Below, piece after piece: positions 2,881 to 43,633 of a DNA stretch of 64,000 nucleotides. The stretch lies in NCBI GenBank assembly GCA_000092065.1, contig CP000601.1; one strand, 5' to 3'. Every line of letters starts with the position of its first letter. Position 1 is the stretch's first letter. The position numbers and the translations under genes are program-made. Source of the DNA: Ostreococcus lucimarinus (Eukaryota). The notes under the pieces are model-generated. The model made no database searches and was not told the origin of the DNA. It saw nothing but the letters and a program-made list of their open reading frames with translations.

Positions 2881-3178
2881 GACGCACGCCGACGCGCACG
2901 CGCGGGACTCTGACGCCCATCACGCGGCGCGCGAGCCCAACCGTCGAATCGGCGAGACTGCGAAACGTTCCAAGCCCAATAATCAACGCGCATCTACATC
3001 GAAAATCAAAATCATCATCACAAACAGAAGAAACAACACAAATCAAACAAGCGAGCGAGCAAGCAACCCAGCGCCGTTTCACTCTAAATCATTTCACGCG
3101 TATCGTTGAGCGGGACGCTGCTCGCGTCGTTTGCGCGCGGCGTAGTATACAAAAGGGCGCGCGGGGCATTCCTCGACG

Positions 3179-3338
3179 TCACGCATAATACTTTTCTTGT
3201 CCTAGCCCATCGCAACTCACTTTACGATATTTGACGTCGACGATGCCGCGGTGCCTGATCGCGATGGAATCGAACGCCGCGTAGCTCAAATCAAAGTGGC
3301 GCGCGTTTTGTTCGCCACCGCAGCACCATCGTTGATTA
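3179..3338 (-). CDS. expansin-like DPBB protein, exon 2
   Basis: Encodes NQRWCCGGEQNARHFDLSYAAFDSIAIRHRGIVDVKYRKVSC, the conserved C-terminal HFDLS...F..IA...G...V.YR.V.C block of the DPBB/expansin domain. It is in frame with exon 1 after intron removal. Confidence 0.55.
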
Positions 3339-3439
3339 CTGACGCGTGAACACGTGTTCGTCAGTCTCGAGCGCGCGCCGCAAAAGATTGATCGAATTTT
3401 TATCGATCGAGAAATTGCGACACCGACGAATTTCCTCAC
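3339..3439 (-). other. inferred 101-bp GT-AG intron (phase 2) of the expansin-like gene
   Basis: Donor GTGAGG at 3439..3434 (minus). Acceptor ...CGCGTCAG| ends at 3339. Splicing joins ...GHPNP-S-NQRWCCGGEQNARHFDLSYAAFDSIA in frame. The intron contains the perfect palindrome AACACGTGTT (3349..3358). Confidence 0.55.
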
Positions 3440-3960
3440 CTCGGATTTGGATGGCCACACGGGCAACTGTCTGTGATTAGCACTGTGATCGATTTCTCGC
3501 CGTCGCCGTTCGCGCAGCCCGCCCACGGGCCGAGCGCGCTGTCGGCCAGTCCTCGCTGCCGACCCGCGACGCACATCACTTCATAACACGCGCCGCACTC
3601 GTCCGTGAGCCCGTGATCGTATCCACCTGCGCAGTTTATGTTTTCAGAGTTGAAATTCCACGCAGCAGCGTCGGTGTTCAACGTACCGTCGGTATTCAAC
3701 GCGGCCACGTAGTGACTCGGAATGTTCGAGCCGTATTTACAGCTCCCGGTATAAATCGACATGCCGTCGGGGCCTGGACCATTCGGTCCGCCGTACCACG
3801 TGGCCGTCCCGCCTTCGCGCCAACCGAGTCCGTCTTCCGCGCGCGCGGCGCCGCGCCGCGACGAGGCGAGCGCAAACGCGAACGCCAGAAGATGCGTGGT
3901 TCGGGACGCGCGCGGCGCGCGACGGGCGGTGCGAGTGGCGAAATCGCGATTGGGAGGCAT
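3440..3960 (-). CDS. expansin-like / barwin-like DPBB (EG45) secreted protein, exon 1
   Basis: GTATWYGGPNGPGPDGMSIYTGSCKYGS...GACYEVMC...ITVLITDSCPC matches the expansin/DPBB N-terminal half. Hydrophobic HLLAFAFALASS is signal-like. The exon ends at a canonical donor (AG|GTGAGG on the minus strand, intron begins at 3439). Confidence 0.6.
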
Positions 3961-4137
3961 GTCGTTTCGTTTCGCTCGGCGGTCGTTTCGAGTCGGGCGT
4001 GAACGTGCGGCGCGGTGTGAGGCTGGTGCCAGGCTCGTTCGAGACCGAGAACGACGACATCGGCGAGATCGGGCGACGCGACGAACATTGTTAGGAAATG
4101 TGCGTGATTAGTGGCATTGAATGTTTCGAGCGAGATT

Positions 4138-5259
4138 TCACGATCCTCGACGCGCGGAGCGGCGACGGACGGTCGAAGAGGGTGACGCTGTCGGTTTTGC
4201 GTCGGCGCGCGCGACGGCGACTGTGGTTTTTCTCGCGCGAGCCGTTTTGGGCGCGGCGGCGGCGGCGGTTTTCGGCTTCCCACTCATCGCGTACGCGAGA
4301 CCGCCGGTGACAACCATGACGGCGCTGATGGCGCCATTGTAACTCAAACACTGTCTCGCGTCGTCCGAGCAAAATAAGACGTGCGAAAACGCGATGACGC
4401 CGACGCTGCGAATCGCGTTCGAGAGCGCCAACTGCGTGGCGCCCGCTCTGGCGACGACAGCCATCATCATCTTCACCATGAACGCCCGACTGAGCATGTT
4501 TCCTAGGTGCACCTTTAAAATCGATGACACATCTCGCGGCGAGGCGTTGTAATACGCCCATACCATCCCGTCCATATCGCGCGCCGTCCTCGCGAGCGTG
4601 TAAATCGCAAACGCCGCCAACCCGCACGTTCCCATCAGCATCGTCTGCGCGTTCCCGCTCAGACTCGATTTCGACGCGCTCAGGTATTCCATGACCAATC
4701 CCCGAAACCCATAACTCACCGTCGCCGCGTTCGCGATCAAGATCCCCCTCGCGTCGATCGCCGTCCCGCGCCTCGCCGCCTCGTCCGCCACGTCCTTCGC
4801 CTTCACCGCCAGCCCACAAATCACCACCGCGATCGCCCCAATCTGCCCCTTAGTGAACGTGCGTTTCAGCACCACCTTCGACAGCAACGCCGAGAGCGGA
4901 ATGAGCAACCCAGAGATGGTTTGGTACAGCGGTCCCCCGAGCGCTCGCATCGCCTCGAACGCGCACGTCAGCCCAAACAAATCAAACACCGGCAGCAACA
5001 GCGCCGCGCGCGGGAACTTTCCCGCGCGCCTCGCCGTCGCCGTCACTCGCCCGTCTCTTCTCGCGCGTAATCGCGCCATCAGGACGCCCGCGCTCGCGCT
5101 CGCGGCGTCGCTCGCGTAAATCATGCCCGTCAACGGCTGCGCCTCCGGCGACACCAATCGCGCGTCCAACACGCGCTGCGCCGTGAGAAAGTAACACACG
5201 CCGAACGCGACGTGCGCGCACATCGCCGGGATCGCGCTCTTCGGCGCGTCGCGCGCCAT
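4138..5259 (-). CDS. multi-pass membrane transporter, drug/metabolite-transporter (DMT) superfamily-like (SLC35F/CRT-like)
   Basis: 373-aa ORF with about 9-10 hydrophobic helices and an R/K/A-rich soluble C-terminal tail. Family assignment is by overall architecture only. The start could be the later Met (MCAHVAFGV). Confidence 0.55.
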   Translation of the reverse strand: MARDAPKSAIPAMCAHVAFGVCYFLTAQRVLDARLVSPEAQPLTGMIYASDAASASAGVLMARLRARRDGRVTATARRAGKFPRAALLLPVFDLFGLTCAFEAMRALGGPLYQTISGLLIPLSALLSKVVLKRTFTKGQIGAIAVVICGLAVKAKDVADEAARRGTAIDARGILIANAATVSYGFRGLVMEYLSASKSSLSGNAQTMLMGTCGLAAFAIYTLARTARDMDGMVWAYYNASPRDVSSILKVHLGNMLSRAFMVKMMMAVVARAGATQLALSNAIRSVGVIAFSHVLFCSDDARQCLSYNGAISAVMVVTGGLAYAMSGKPKTAAAAAPKTARARKTTVAVARADAKPTASPSSTVRRRSARRGS

Positions 5260-14606: not shown

Positions 14607-16661
14607 ATGTCGAGCGACGGCGACGACGGCGACGACGGCCGAGGGCGCGACGACGGCGACGACGGCGACGACGCGCGGCGCGCGGGCGCGTCGCGCGCGC
14701 GCGCGGACGCGAGAGGGACGAATAATCATCGCAATCACGACGATGGCGTTCGAAATCAACGACGACGACGGTCGAGCGACGACGCGCGCGACGGCGCAGA
14801 CGACGAGACGACGAACGCGCGAGCGACCGACGGTGACGACGAACGAACGGACGCGCGACTGTTCCCGCCGACGCGCGCGGACGAGGAGGGGACGAAGACG
14901 CGGACGCGCGGGGACGAGGCGACGCGCGGGACGAACGAGGCGAAGGAAAACGACGACGAGGGGCGAAGGAAAGCGAACGAGCGCGGGAAAACGCGCGGGA
15001 GGGAAGGCGATGGCGGCGTGGGAGCGACGGGGGGGTCGATCGTGGACGCGGCGAGGGAGAGCGCGACGGCGGGGTTGGCGGTGTGCGGAAACGTGTACGT
15101 GCGGAGCGTGGAGAATAAGCTGCCGCCGGGAGTGCGATCGGTGGTGAAGGGCGCGAGGTGCGAGGTGCGGACGTTCGCGGATGTATTCTTTGCGACGATG
15201 TTCGCGTCGTGCGCGCTGACGGTGCGCGTGGTGGGGGCGGGGGCGGGGGCGGCGCGACGCGCGGGCGAACGGACGATGTCGACGGCGGGGGAGGCGAGCG
15301 CGAGAATCGCGCGCGAGGTCAAGATGAAGACGATGACGATCGCCAAGGGCGGGAACGACCGCAAAGAAGCGCGTGGGGAGGCGTCGAAGGCGTCTGAACC
15401 GTCGTCGGTGGCCTCGTTGGCGAAGGAGAAGACGAAAGAGGCGTTGCGAGGGCTCGACGACGCCAAGCTGGCCGCGCTGGCGAGCGTGAAATCTTTCTTC
15501 GATGACCGAAATAAACCAGGCGGGGACGGGACGAAGTCGAAAAAGAGTGGCGAAGCGTCCGGGTCGAAGTCGAAAAACGCGAAGAAGAAGTCGGTCGATG
15601 TGACGAAGACCAATGGCGACGCGAAGCCGCGGCGGAAGAAGTCGGTCGCGACGGAGGATGGGAAACTGAAAAGGCGCGTCGATCCTTTGCGAAGCCTCGT
15701 GAGCGAAGAAACGTCTAAAAAGGTTAAAGAAAAGTTAAAAGGGTTTGAGGATGCCGTTGGAAGTTGGCCAATGGTGCAAGCGGTGAAGCCACGCGTGGAT
15801 GGCTTCGTTGAAGCGTTCGCGGAGCGTCAACGCGTCGTCGTCGCCAAGCTGCACTCGTCCACCGAAGGCGGCGTCGACACCATACGCGGTGCGCGTGCGA
15901 GCTTGGTCCATCACGCTAAGGGCTTAAAAACACGCGTCGAGGATGGTGTCACCGGCGCGCGCGGTATTTTGGCTGGTGGAATCGCGAGCACGAGTAGACT
16001 CGTATCTCCGCTCCTCCGTCACGACAGGAGCGCGACGCAAAAAAGTCGACTGAAGACGTTTTTAAACCCTGGTTCGAGCGGACGTGCGATTATGAGAGAT
16101 GACGAGTACAGCGCTGCACAGATTGAGCGGCACCACGAGCTGAGTAAACAAGTGGAGCGCGCGGCGAAGCTTTCTCGCGAGGCGGATGGCGAGTTGCTCG
16201 CCAAGCCGCTGCGCGTCGTCGTGCAGCCGGAGGACAATCTGTTCGACATCGCCAGCATCGCTGGCATCAGCGTCATGGATCTCGCGCGCTACAACAACTT
16301 GCGTCCGCATCCAGAGAGCCACTTCCTCAAGATTGACCCCGGCCAGGTCCTGTACGTCCCTTCGCGGTCTTTGCTCGACCGCCTTCCCGCGATCGATCGC
16401 GCTAGAGAGCCCAAATACGAGCTCTCCGTCCGCGTCACCGACGTCCCGCGCGCGGCACCACCACCGACCGCTTCGTCTCGCCTCGTGCATCCATCGCGTC
16501 ACTCCAGGCACAAATCCGTGCGCGAATCCGACGACGCGTTGGAGTCATCCAACTTTGCCGCGTCTCTGGGCGTCTCGCTCGCCCTGTGCGCCGCCGCGCT
16601 CGCCCTGCGCAGCGTTCGCGAAGCCATGAATTCCGACGACGAAGACGTCAACGACGCCTAA
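14607..16661 (+). CDS. LysM-domain protein (low-complexity N-terminus, K-rich middle, C-terminal hydrophobic tail)
   Basis: LysM: VVVQPEDNLFDIASIAGISVMDLARYNNLRPHPESHFLKIDPGQVLYVP. C-terminal SLGVSLALCAAALALRS is a likely membrane anchor. The N-terminal 200 aa is D/G/R low complexity, so the true start is uncertain (possibly MSTAGEAS at about 15277). Confidence 0.55.
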   Translation: MSSDGDDGDDGRGRDDGDDGDDARRAGASRARADARGTNNHRNHDDGVRNQRRRRSSDDARDGADDETTNARATDGDDERTDARLFPPTRADEEGTKTRTRGDEATRGTNEAKENDDEGRRKANERGKTRGREGDGGVGATGGSIVDAARESATAGLAVCGNVYVRSVENKLPPGVRSVVKGARCEVRTFADVFFATMFASCALTVRVVGAGAGAARRAGERTMSTAGEASARIAREVKMKTMTIAKGGNDRKEARGEASKASEPSSVASLAKEKTKEALRGLDDAKLAALASVKSFFDDRNKPGGDGTKSKKSGEASGSKSKNAKKKSVDVTKTNGDAKPRRKKSVATEDGKLKRRVDPLRSLVSEETSKKVKEKLKGFEDAVGSWPMVQAVKPRVDGFVEAFAERQRVVVAKLHSSTEGGVDTIRGARASLVHHAKGLKTRVEDGVTGARGILAGGIASTSRLVSPLLRHDRSATQKSRLKTFLNPGSSGRAIMRDDEYSAAQIERHHELSKQVERAAKLSREADGELLAKPLRVVVQPEDNLFDIASIAGISVMDLARYNNLRPHPESHFLKIDPGQVLYVPSRSLLDRLPAIDRAREPKYELSVRVTDVPRAAPPPTASSRLVHPSRHSRHKSVRESDDALESSNFAASLGVSLALCAAALALRSVREAMNSDDEDVNDA

Positions 16662-19727: not shown

Positions 19728-21260
19728 TCACACCGCGTTTTCGAGGTACTTGCGCGTGAATTCGTCGCTCTCGCCGAGCTTGAAAGCGCGAGAGTGAATT
19801 TCGAGCACCGAACCCACGCGCATGTCGCGCAAGTCGTAAAACGCGCCCGTCTCGTCGCGCTTCCTGACTCTGGCGCGCTCCAGAAACTTGCTCGAGCAAC
19901 TGTCCTTTGACGCTTGTTCGAAAATTGACAACGTCTTGTCACCGACGTGGAACGAGACCACAAAACGACGCGAAGCATCGAATTCGCACACTTCATCAGC
20001 GTCGCTGATCGGGACCATTTCGGCGCGAAACTGCAAAACGATTTCGTCATCCTTCGCGACGTCCTTGCGCGGCGGCTTGGGAATGAGCGAAATGCAGTTT
20101 TGCAAGCTGTCCTCTTCGCTCCCGATGGCGAGACCTGTGTGCTCAGGTATGCGATGCGCTGGAACAGTATCCTCGGGCTCGGTGACGTCGTGCGGCTCGA
20201 AAGCAGCCTCCGTCAACTCGCCCGGGAATTTCGTCAGGTACCACGACTTCGTGAATTCGTCGCAGTCGTAGATGAAGAAATCTCTCTTGTACACTCGAAT
20301 CGTGTCCCCGACGTGCAAGTCTTCCGCGGTGACATAATCGAAATCATCGTTCGCTAGACCTCTGGCGTTCGCATCTTCATCGCGCAGAGGTAATCTGGAC
20401 CTGTGCAGAAGCGTCGAAGACATCCCGCTTCCTCGCCCCGATTTGTTCGCTTCGACTTCGGTGATGGCGACGGTGTCGTCGATGAGAAAGAACGTCAGAA
20501 CAAATCTTCGCCTGTCGCCGAATTTCGACCTGTCGTCCCAAACGCAGTAGAAGCGAAGCACTTGCTTGTCGTGCGTGAGAAATTTCCCTCGAGCATCCTT
20601 CTTCGTAGAACGCGCGGCGCGACGCGCGAGCCGAACCTCCTCCCACGACGGACCGACGCCGTCGGGTTCGCGCTCATCATTCGGGACATCGACGCCGACG
20701 CGTCCGAGGTAATCGCGCGTGAATCCATCGCAGCGATAAATTTTAAACTCGAACCCGTAGATCGTTACCGCTTTGCCAACGTTTAAATCTCCCAAAGTCA
20801 CGCCGCGCACGACGTGACGCTTGAGAAACGCGCCTTGGGGCATGCCGCTGTTCTCCACGCGCGGTTCCGTGATTTTGATCGATCCGTCCTCGAGGAAAAA
20901 GTAAATGACGCATTTCCGGCATCTCGCGCTCTCCTTTTGACCGTTTTCGACGGTTTCATCAAAATACGCGTTAAATCGCAAGACGAGCCCGTGCAATTTA
21001 ACGTACTCGGGCGCGTACGCCTTCGCCTCGCCGCGCGCGGGCGCGTCCGCGAACGCGTTCGCGTCGAACACATCGACCTCGCCGTCCGAGTCTCGAGGAA
21101 TCGCGTAGCCATTCACAAAACTCAGCGATTGCGTCTTCGGTTTCATCGATGCCTGCGCGCGACGACGCATCGACGCTCCGTCGTGAGTCGTTCGAGTCGA
21201 GTCTTCGCGCGCGCGCGACGGCCGCCATCCGCGCGCGACGACGCACCGTCGGCGTTCCAA
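19728..21260 (-). CDS. EFHC1: EFHC1/Rib72-like axonemal protein with three DM10 domains
   Basis: Three repeats of the DM10 pattern (LRF.AYFDE...CVIYFFLEDGSIKITEPRVENSG; LRFYCVWDD...FVLTFFLIDDTVAITEVEANKSG; VLQFRAEMV...FVVSFHVGDKTLSIFEQASKDS), each followed by F.Y.CD.FT..YL. Typical of flagellar protofilament-ribbon proteins. Confidence 0.8.
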   Translation of the reverse strand: MERRRCVVARGWRPSRAREDSTRTTHDGASMRRRAQASMKPKTQSLSFVNGYAIPRDSDGEVDVFDANAFADAPARGEAKAYAPEYVKLHGLVLRFNAYFDETVENGQKESARCRKCVIYFFLEDGSIKITEPRVENSGMPQGAFLKRHVVRGVTLGDLNVGKAVTIYGFEFKIYRCDGFTRDYLGRVGVDVPNDEREPDGVGPSWEEVRLARRAARSTKKDARGKFLTHDKQVLRFYCVWDDRSKFGDRRRFVLTFFLIDDTVAITEVEANKSGRGSGMSSTLLHRSRLPLRDEDANARGLANDDFDYVTAEDLHVGDTIRVYKRDFFIYDCDEFTKSWYLTKFPGELTEAAFEPHDVTEPEDTVPAHRIPEHTGLAIGSEEDSLQNCISLIPKPPRKDVAKDDEIVLQFRAEMVPISDADEVCEFDASRRFVVSFHVGDKTLSIFEQASKDSCSSKFLERARVRKRDETGAFYDLRDMRVGSVLEIHSRAFKLGESDEFTRKYLENAV

Positions 21261-41878: not shown

Positions 41879-43633
41879 TTACTTGGAGCCTTCGCCTTCG
41901 GCGCCGGAAGAACTTCGGGAGCCTTCTTTCGAACCTTCGTTCGAACCTTCGTTCGAGCCGTGACCGTACTCGTCCACTCCCTTGCCTTCGACTTCGCCGA
42001 CCTTGTTCGCCTCGCTCGCGTTGGTTTCGTTCGACTTTGGTTTGTTGTCCGATCCGTTTGAGACGTTTTCAGTCGTCGTCGTCGTCGTCGTCGTTTCATC
42101 GTTGTTTCGAGTGAACTGTCCGCGAACGCGAGGACGGGATTCCGAGAGCTTTTGTCGCGAAGGGTAAAGAACTTTCTTTTCGAAGTTCCTTTCCTTGCGC
42201 TTCTTCAAAAAGCGTCGAATCGCCGCGGCGCGATGCTCGGCGGCTTGGCTCGAGCTCGTCTGCTGGGTGTGATCGGCCGCAGTTTGTAAAACGTTGAAAA
42301 ACGGATTCGCCATATACGATTGATCCATCACTGAAGCGTCGACCGAAGACGCCGCCACCGCGGCGGCGGCGGCGGCGGCGGCGGAGAATTGGTTCATATC
42401 GGCGTACGGCGGCATCGGCGGCGGCACGGGCATTTCCATCTTCGGCATAATCGGTCCGTAAAATTTGGCGAAATCTGACGGTGGCATCATGGAAGACGCT
42501 TCATAAAACGAGTGATGCTGCTGCGTCAAGTCAACGCTCATCATTTGCACCGCGGTATCCTTGTTTTCGTTCTTAAGGTAGTTTTGAAACCCCTTGAACG
42601 CCGAACGCGAGTTTGATCGTCGAACGACGACGTGCTCAGACGCGTGCTCTGGTAAAGAGAGTTCGAGCATAGTCGTTGCCCCACCGTGCGCCTTGATGAG
42701 TTGCACGCTCAAGCCGCGGAACTTTTCGCCGTCGTTTGGATCACGCTGGCCCGACCCCGAGCCTTCGTGGGAGCCGCTACCGCTTCCCGTGCCTTGACCC
42801 GAGCCGCCCGAGCCGCAGTCTCCCGACCCACCCTCGCGACTGGCCCATCGATCGATCGCTTCGGCTTCGGCGCGTCTCGTGAGCGGTTTTTCGTTGTATT
42901 GATTATCGCTCCCCGAATCGTTTTGCCCACCGCCCGAGCCCCCCGCGACTTTTTCCCTGCTCGTGAGCTTGGTGAGCGACGACTTTGCGCTCCCGCCGAC
43001 GTTGTCGTTTGGATCCATGCAGTTCCCCGAACCCGAACCCTCACCTTCAACGCTACCACTTTCGTGGCTTTTTAACGCCCGCGTGTGCGCCAAGCTCTCC
43101 TTCAACTCGATGCGGTTCACCGGTTTCGTCAAGAAACCGGCGGCGCCCGAATTTTCAAATCGCGTCTTGCACGCCTTGCGCTCGTCCACGGTGGACATGA
43201 TGACGATCGGCACCCCGCGCAGGGTTTCGTTCGCCTTACACGCCTCCACCAGTTCGACTTCCCCGTCGAGTTCGGGCATCAACACGTCGAGCAAAATCAT
43301 ATCCACCGACGTGTCCTCCCTCGCGCTCTTCGGCGCCCCCCGCAAGACGTCCAAGACTTCGTTCCCATTCGTCGCCGCCACCACCTCCACCCCGAGCTCG
43401 CGCAGCATCGATTCCACCATCTTTCGCGTGTGCGCGTCGTCCGTCGCCAGCAGCACTCTCAAGTGCGCGCCCGCGTCGTTCAACCTCGGTCGCGCGCTCT
43501 TCCCATTCGTCTTCGCGCGCGCGCGTCCCGCGCGTCCCCCCCCCCCGCCCGCGTTTCTCGCGCTCGCGTCCTCGACCGCGTCCGCGAGCGCGTCCGCGAG
43601 TCGCGTCGCGCCCATCGCGTCGTCGTCCCGCAT
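41879..43633 (-). CDS. pseudo-response regulator / TOC1-like clock protein (receiver domain + C-terminal CCT motif)
   Basis: Receiver: LRVLLATDDAHTRKMVESMLRELGVEVVAATNGNEVLDVL...DMILLDVLMPELDG...IVIMS...GFLTKP. D-D, phospho-acceptor D and K positions are present. CCT: EHRAAAIRRFLKKRKERNFEKKVLYPSRQKLSESRPRVRGQFTR. G/S-rich middle and acidic C-terminal tail. Confidence 0.85.
   Translation of the reverse strand: MRDDDAMGATRLADALADAVEDASARNAGGGGGRAGRARAKTNGKSARPRLNDAGAHLRVLLATDDAHTRKMVESMLRELGVEVVAATNGNEVLDVLRGAPKSAREDTSVDMILLDVLMPELDGEVELVEACKANETLRGVPIVIMSTVDERKACKTRFENSGAAGFLTKPVNRIELKESLAHTRALKSHESGSVEGEGSGSGNCMDPNDNVGGSAKSSLTKLTSREKVAGGSGGGQNDSGSDNQYNEKPLTRRAEAEAIDRWASREGGSGDCGSGGSGQGTGSGSGSHEGSGSGQRDPNDGEKFRGLSVQLIKAHGGATTMLELSLPEHASEHVVVRRSNSRSAFKGFQNYLKNENKDTAVQMMSVDLTQQHHSFYEASSMMPPSDFAKFYGPIMPKMEMPVPPPMPPYADMNQFSAAAAAAAAVAASSVDASVMDQSYMANPFFNVLQTAADHTQQTSSSQAAEHRAAAIRRFLKKRKERNFEKKVLYPSRQKLSESRPRVRGQFTRNNDETTTTTTTTENVSNGSDNKPKSNETNASEANKVGEVEGKGVDEYGHGSNEGSNEGSKEGSRSSSGAEGEGSK

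Follow-up and report, generated by a model that had tools for sequence, protein, structure and literature searches.

An expressed three-exon gene for a putatively secreted protein resembling expansin domain 1, from a likely green picoalga

What might an expansin-like protein do in a cell that has no plant-type wall? The question is raised by a gene on the minus strand, between positions 3960 and 3179, of the 64,000-nucleotide stretch of contig CP000601.1 analyzed here (the window), which an initial annotation had described as a two-exon gene for a secreted expansin-type protein. The gene is real and expressed. It is a three-exon nuclear gene of a flagellated picoalga of Mamiellophyceae type, whose 206-residue product consists of a leader and one cysteine-rich double-psi beta-barrel (DPBB) of the expansin domain 1/GH45-like kind. 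With moderate confidence, we propose that this protein binds or loosens glycans outside the cell without hydrolysis.

The gene model was established from the reading frames and from one transcript-derived contig. Before splicing, the open reading frame (ORF) starting at ATG 3960 comprises 174 codons and ends at TGA 3438..3436, and a second ORF in another frame, extending to 3179, carries NQRWCCGG...RHFDLS...YRKVSC. Joining 3440 to 3338, with 101 nucleotides removed, restores a single frame in which the codon of Ser154 is split AG/T. The homologue search retrieved a 1,441-nucleotide Logan contig (L001, run SRR28369158) that carries the 206-residue protein P0001. Its alignment with the window consists of the blocks 4037..3688, 3627..3442 and 3340..3004, with 1 mismatch in 873 nucleotides; the block edges are ambiguous, and sliding of the bases gives canonical introns at 3686..3627 and 3439..3339. 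Since both intron segments are retained in nine genomic contigs from the same species, L001 derives from spliced RNA. The 101-nucleotide intron of the initial annotation was correct in its GT..AG type, splice words and coordinates, L001 lacking precisely 3439..3339. The last exon, assumed there to be expressed, is covered by the spliced contig (L001 1105-1441 corresponds to 3340..3004 at 100% identity). The two-exon structure has to be extended to three exons by a second intron of 60 nucleotides, which had been read as coding (TLNTDAAAWNFNSENINCAG) as it keeps the frame and contains no stop codon. None of the aligned homologues has its 20 codons. The doubly spliced coding sequence (CDS) measures 621 nucleotides and its translation is identical to P0001, with 206 residues versus 226 after removal of one intron. 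With GT..AG ends, a restored frame and their absence from the RNA, both introns pass as spliceosomal; their G+C content amounts to 48-50%, that of CDS codon positions 1, 2 and 3 to 61, 58 and 69%. An upstream ATG at 4088 is neither within the transcript nor in frame. The resulting features are:

3961..4037, minus strand: 5' untranslated region (UTR), minimum extent, 77 nucleotides; the L001 alignment starts at 4037
3687..3960, minus strand: exon 1, codons 1-91 and the first base of Gly92; leader peptide, TATWYGG, GSCKYG
3838..3960, minus strand: putative signal peptide, residues 1 to ~41, by hydropathy and a -3/-1 heuristic
3627..3686, minus strand: intron 1, 60 nucleotides, GTACGT...GCGCAG, phase 1, stop-free, GC 48%, absent from L001
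3440..3626, minus strand: exon 2, GGYDHGLT, CGACYEVMC, ITDSCPCGHPNP
3339..3439, minus strand: intron 2, 101 nucleotides, GTGAGG...GTCAG, phase 2, GC 50%, absent from L001; branch-site-like CTGAC 28 nucleotides upstream of the 3' splice site
3179..3338, minus strand: exon 3, NQRWCCGG, HFD at 3298..3290, GIVDVKYRKVSC, stop codon TGA 3181..3179
3004..3178, minus strand: 3' UTR, minimum extent, 175 nucleotides, from L001

Most public protein predictions for this gene are wrong. Metagenome gene calls at the locus (P0003, P0004, P0008; 3858/3857 region) are truncated at intron 2 to 174 residues or fused to out-of-frame sequence upstream, such fusions being caused by strain indels, for example a 1-nucleotide insertion in contig L002. 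The first 568 nucleotides of L001 have no match in the window upstream of 4037; they hold an antisense ORF of 139 residues and join the remainder within CG-rich low-complexity sequence. This part probably stems from chimeric assembly of RNA-seq reads or from another neighboring gene in that strain.

The domain assignment was obtained from profile searches with the corrected product. Pfam identified DPBB_1 in the 206-residue protein at 2.2e-16 and 60.3 bits (cut-off 28.8) and EXPB1_D1 at 30.8 bits (curated cut-off 27), the latter covering profile positions 4-137 of 141; in the 226-residue version with intron 1 read through, EXPB1_D1 reaches 21.9 bits. Neither Expansin_C/CBM63, the second domain of expansins, nor Glyco_hydro_45 was matched in Pfam at E <= 1. 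The protein stops 10 residues past the last domain cysteine, and L001 confirms both the stop codon and the 3' UTR. Searched singly against PDB sequences, it found maize beta-expansin EXPB1 at 6.7e-5. With a profile of 32 family members, EXPB1 (1.1e-6) and Phl p 1 (4.3e-6) ranked at the top, and Streptomyces papain inhibitor (SPI) appeared weakly at 0.019 over the HxDLS..GVV segment. The profile alignment places TWYG, CGxCYEV.C, HFDLS and the closing cysteine in register with EXPB1. Of the signature described originally, GTATWYG and HFDLS indeed stand on opposite sides of intron 2; the literal GACGYG does not occur and is represented by the equivalents GSCKYG and CGACYE.

An AlphaFold (AF2) model calculated on the family alignment has a mean predicted local distance difference test (pLDDT) of 71.6. 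Most of the barrel reaches at least 90, and the leader (residues 1-43) lies below 50 and is disordered. Structural comparison of this model gave the following fold matches, with their scores:

Talaromyces expansin (7WVR): 10.1
cotton GhEXLA1 (7XC8): 9.8
Streptomyces expansin (9MS5): 9.7
Phl p 1 (1N10): 9.2
Clavibacter expansin (4JCW): 9.1
PcCel45A (GH45-C): 8.6
kiwellin: 8.4
barwin-like: 8.4
cerato-platanin: 7.8
RlpA-like PA4485: 7.7
SPI: 7.7
loosenin: 7.6

All of them are DPBB proteins, Foldseek returned the same set, and the five expansins share 23-34% identity with the model over the aligned core.

In comparison to domain 1 of plant expansins (EXPB1 2HCZ, Phl p 1 1N10, GhEXLA1 7XC8), the protein has an N-terminal leader as well and keeps TWYG, GxC, CGxCYEV.C, HFDLS and ..YR.V.C in register. 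It differs in having ten cysteines rather than six to eight, in the length of the mature domain (~160 residues with extra loops, compared to ~110-120) and in the missing CBM63. A cysteine-bearing insertion, CPC...WCC, precedes HFD and presumably recalls the CPP...WC insertion of alpha-expansins. The microbial EXLX1 expansins (Talaromyces 7WVR, Streptomyces 9MS5, Bacillus 3D30, Clavibacter 4JCW) share the Thr/Asp/Asp groove pattern; they are two-domain, cysteine-poor proteins, and the match is limited to their domain 1. The defining features of expansin domain 1, a GH45-like DPBB with the TxYG, GxCG, CGxC and HFD motifs, are all present. Domain 2 is absent, and the protein therefore does not count as an expansin sensu stricto. 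The expansin/DPBB identity assigned at the outset is hence retained as a DPBB resembling expansin domain 1, on the basis of Pfam and the PDB profile, and given up as a strict expansin because CBM63 is missing.

A word-indexed search yielded 52 relatives, and an exhaustive profile search 786 representatives at E <= 1e-3, 39 of them at E <= 1e-30. Among 63 more distant full-domain relatives, DPBB_1 was found in all 63, EXPB1_D1 in 43 and Expansin_C in a single one; a CBM63 scan of 10 longer distant relatives found none. These distant relatives have leaders and the common signature TDxCPC...SNxRWCCGD...HxDLS. In the 32 family members T54, G57/G58, C74, C102, C105, C110, C129, D144, C146, C148, C159, C160, H168, D170 and C196 are invariant or nearly so. 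The nearest relative beyond the core clade, P0095 (207 residues), lies on a contig of a eukaryotic assembly (L031; GCA_025201885.1, MU601694.1); its gene is intron-rich, taking 2,082 nucleotides for 207 residues. Searches for viral relatives (IMG/VR patterns, BFVD fold search) yielded nothing nearer than generic RlpA-like proteins of phages.

Secretion, as proposed initially, is likely. The leader has an arginine-rich n-region and the h-region LLAFAFALA, with possible heuristic cleavage after ARA/ED or ASS/RR. A hydrophobic N-terminal segment was found by the same kind of heuristic in 13 of 13 family members checked, several of which have textbook-like signal peptides, clearer than that of the gene itself. 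Together with ten conserved cysteines and a fold family that is exclusively extracellular, this leader would take the protein into the secretory pathway, and five disulfides may stabilize it outside the cell.

The proposed function centers on the groove residues. T54, D144 and D170 are located in the TxYG, (I/V)TD and HFD motifs, which we take to line the glycan-binding groove, as in EXLX1 and EXPB1; the aspartate of HFD presumably corresponds to the GH45 catalytic acid. D170 occupies this acid position, is invariant and aligns with the HFD aspartate of EXPB1. The classical GH45 base position is taken by Gly57 of TWYGG in the EXPB1 alignment, as in expansins, and a non-hydrolytic role is favored over a glucanase for this reason. 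A shallow groove with Thr54 (TWYGG), Asp144 (ITD) and Asp170 (HFD) could thus bind a beta-linked glycan chain, which might be loosened without hydrolysis or be lysed weakly, either being likelier than true glucanase action. Candidate targets would be a secreted or cell-surface polysaccharide, the covering of a resistant stage or zygote, or glycans of other organisms. Glycan binding or loosening outside the cell is a putative function.

Several points weigh against this assignment. Wall loosening by expansins also requires domain 2, as known from EXLX1, and a protein consisting of domain 1 may act otherwise. Enzymes of GH45 subfamily C hydrolyze without the classical base, which leaves catalysis possible despite the missing aspartate. 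The suggested equivalence to T12/D71/D82 of EXLX1 is drawn from the register of the motifs and the alignment to EXPB1 rather than from residue-by-residue superposition. Finally, the long n-region, rich in Arg, Ala, Ser and Thr, could also indicate an organellar presequence, the signal-peptide calling being heuristic.

The alternative that survives best, itself unlikely, is a DPBB role unrelated to glycans, that is a signaling ligand of the plant natriuretic peptide (PNP)/EG45-like type, a kiwellin-like decoy or binder, or a protease inhibitor similar to SPI. The single-domain architecture without CBM is common to these groups, and the weak SPI match in the profile search points in the same direction. 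All of them, however, have lower scores than expansin domain 1, the groove residues that characterize glycan binders are conserved, and nothing in the locus points to signaling. Loosenins (PcaLOOL12 9CE9), EG45-like/PNP, kiwellin, cerato-platanin and barwin-like proteins are likewise less similar than expansin domain 1 and lack TDxCPC...SNxRWCC.

We consider it still less probable that the protein is a catalytically active beta-1,4-glycanase or lytic enzyme of the GH45 subfamily C type. Its mature domain with the long loops is nearer in size to a single-domain GH45-C enzyme (180 residues) than to an expansin domain 1 on its own, and both acidic groove residues are invariant. The glycine at the base position and the lack of a Pfam GH45 match speak against hydrolysis, and identity to the subfamily C enzymes PcCel45A and GtCel45A is lower, at 16-22%. 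Non-hydrolytic binding or loosening of an extracellular glycan therefore stays our preferred reading.

The gene neighborhood is conserved across related marine picoalgae. Upstream of the gene lies, as context:

4138..5259, minus strand: EamA/CRT-like transporter, on the same strand as the DPBB gene

In orthologous loci the order is DEAD-box helicase, EamA/CRT-like transporter, DPBB gene and adrenodoxin-reductase-like gene. It was found on contigs from Tara Oceans and other marine metagenomes, and the synteny extends to at least three other species. In each of the orthologous loci retrieved (L011-L018, L021-L029), the transporter lies directly upstream of the DPBB gene, and the pair also occurs in a distant low-GC, Asp-rich relative, suspected by its composition to be Bathycoccus-like. 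This adjacency may be plain synteny of compact genomes.

Orthologues at 64-70% identity have an uninterrupted ORF at both intron positions, intron 2 being absent from L018, L021 and L011. The orthologue of another species (L011) has a probable 141-nucleotide in-frame intron at a different site (GSC/.../GYG, GTGCGT...GCAG, ~3215..3355). This probable intron and the 60-nucleotide intron 1 are both multiples of three and stop-free and hence were called as protein, a pattern that may reflect ascertainment bias. Introner-type mobile elements are known in Micromonas, and recent lineage-specific insertion of such an element would explain both introns, their absence from the orthologues, the third position in another species and an intron GC below that of the CDS. 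We regard this origin as improbable: neither intron was found a second time in the window or in the fetched loci, other than at the same locus, and intron loss in other lineages explains the pattern equally well.

A further feature to which importance had been attached lies within intron 2:

3349..3358, either strand: palindrome AACACGTGTT, 10 bp, with a CACGTG core, between the branch-like site and the 3' splice site

Sequence and position of this perfect palindrome were described correctly; its significance was not borne out, as it occurs at chance level and has no comparative support. The window contains 294 perfect 10-bp palindromes, where first-order Markov simulations give 152 +/- 11; most of this surplus is (CG)n, with CGCGCGCGCG and GCGCGCGCGC dominating, and 3 of the 294 have the CACGTG core. 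Many CG-rich low-complexity stretches of the window match one another. A functional G-box-type element or a splicing-affecting RNA hairpin is highly improbable: the motif is there, the exact 10-mer occurs just once in the window and the flanking CTGACG and CGTCAG are able to pair, but 21% of 101-nucleotide window slices hold a 10-bp palindrome, CACGTG is not enriched (24 in the window against ~21 expected), intron 2 folds with z = -1.4 (matched by 15 of 200 shuffles) and nine population contigs, with one variable intron-2 position, are too similar to judge constraint. Because the intron is entirely missing from orthologues, AACACGTGTT cannot serve the gene as a conserved regulatory element. 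The intronic palindrome is no more than chance.

The type of cell can be narrowed from the rest of the window. An ORF at 19728..21260 (minus strand, 510 residues) with three DM10 domains has Chlamydomonas RIB72 as its best PDB match (E = 1.5e-75). RIB72 is a flagellar protofilament ribbon/microtubule inner protein, and the organism therefore builds a flagellum. This agrees with Micromonas and speaks against Ostreococcus and Bathycoccus. Another ORF, at 41879..43633 (minus strand, 584 residues), combines Response_reg and CCT, as in a clock protein of the TOC1/pseudo-response-regulator (PRR) type. Together with a G+C content of 60.7%, compact genes, an LESV gene and relatives in marine metagenomes, this TOC1/PRR-like gene fits a Mamiellophyceae-type green picoalga. 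The initial annotation had assumed a naked Micromonas-type cell; the flagellate character agrees with RIB72, whereas nakedness does not follow, scaly flagellates such as Mantoniella fitting as well. Another glycan-binding module occurs in the region, a LysM domain in an ORF of 684 residues at 14607..16661 (plus strand). Neither Rfam nor tRNA scanning gave a match in the window.

According to the literature, prasinophytes are scale-covered or naked, and green algae possess a CslA/CslC-like glycosyltransferase clade, CslK, of unknown function (PMC3797821). The existence of this clade makes a beta-1,4-glycan substrate in prasinophyte cells conceivable. A 2024 survey of expansin evolution found expansins neither in O. 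lucimarinus nor in M. pusilla or C. reinhardtii, and catalogued DPBB proteins that lack CBM63, namely three O. lucimarinus genes and two of M. pusilla (PMC11547041, Table S3). These DPBB-only genes almost certainly belong to the same family as the present gene, an identity that we infer, as the survey gives gene ids and E-values only. The presence of such a protein in a picoalga, considered unexpected in the initial annotation, was thus already on record (PMC11547041), and the novelty is low: the gene is a better-defined new member of an already noticed DPBB-only group.

This group invites a more speculative proposal, to which we give little weight. The positionally conserved family with ten cysteines and domain 1 alone (TDxCPC...SNxRWCC...HxDLS) could be a surviving proto-expansin, a DPBB module that predates the fusion with CBM63 and acts on a glycan other than that of a wall. 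In cells without a conventional wall its substrate might be scales, a secreted polysaccharide or the covering of a zygote or resting stage.

For the family, the results correct the gene model, as metagenome gene callers stop at 174 residues or read through intron 1 and the true product has 206 residues. They place the picoalgal DPBB-only genes nearest to expansin domain 1 among solved structures, with synteny kept across marine picoalgae. The gene is a concrete candidate for asking which role an expansin-like module plays in cells lacking a plant-type wall. If the proto-expansin proposal were true, the origin of expansin function would be open to experiment in a transformable picoalga.
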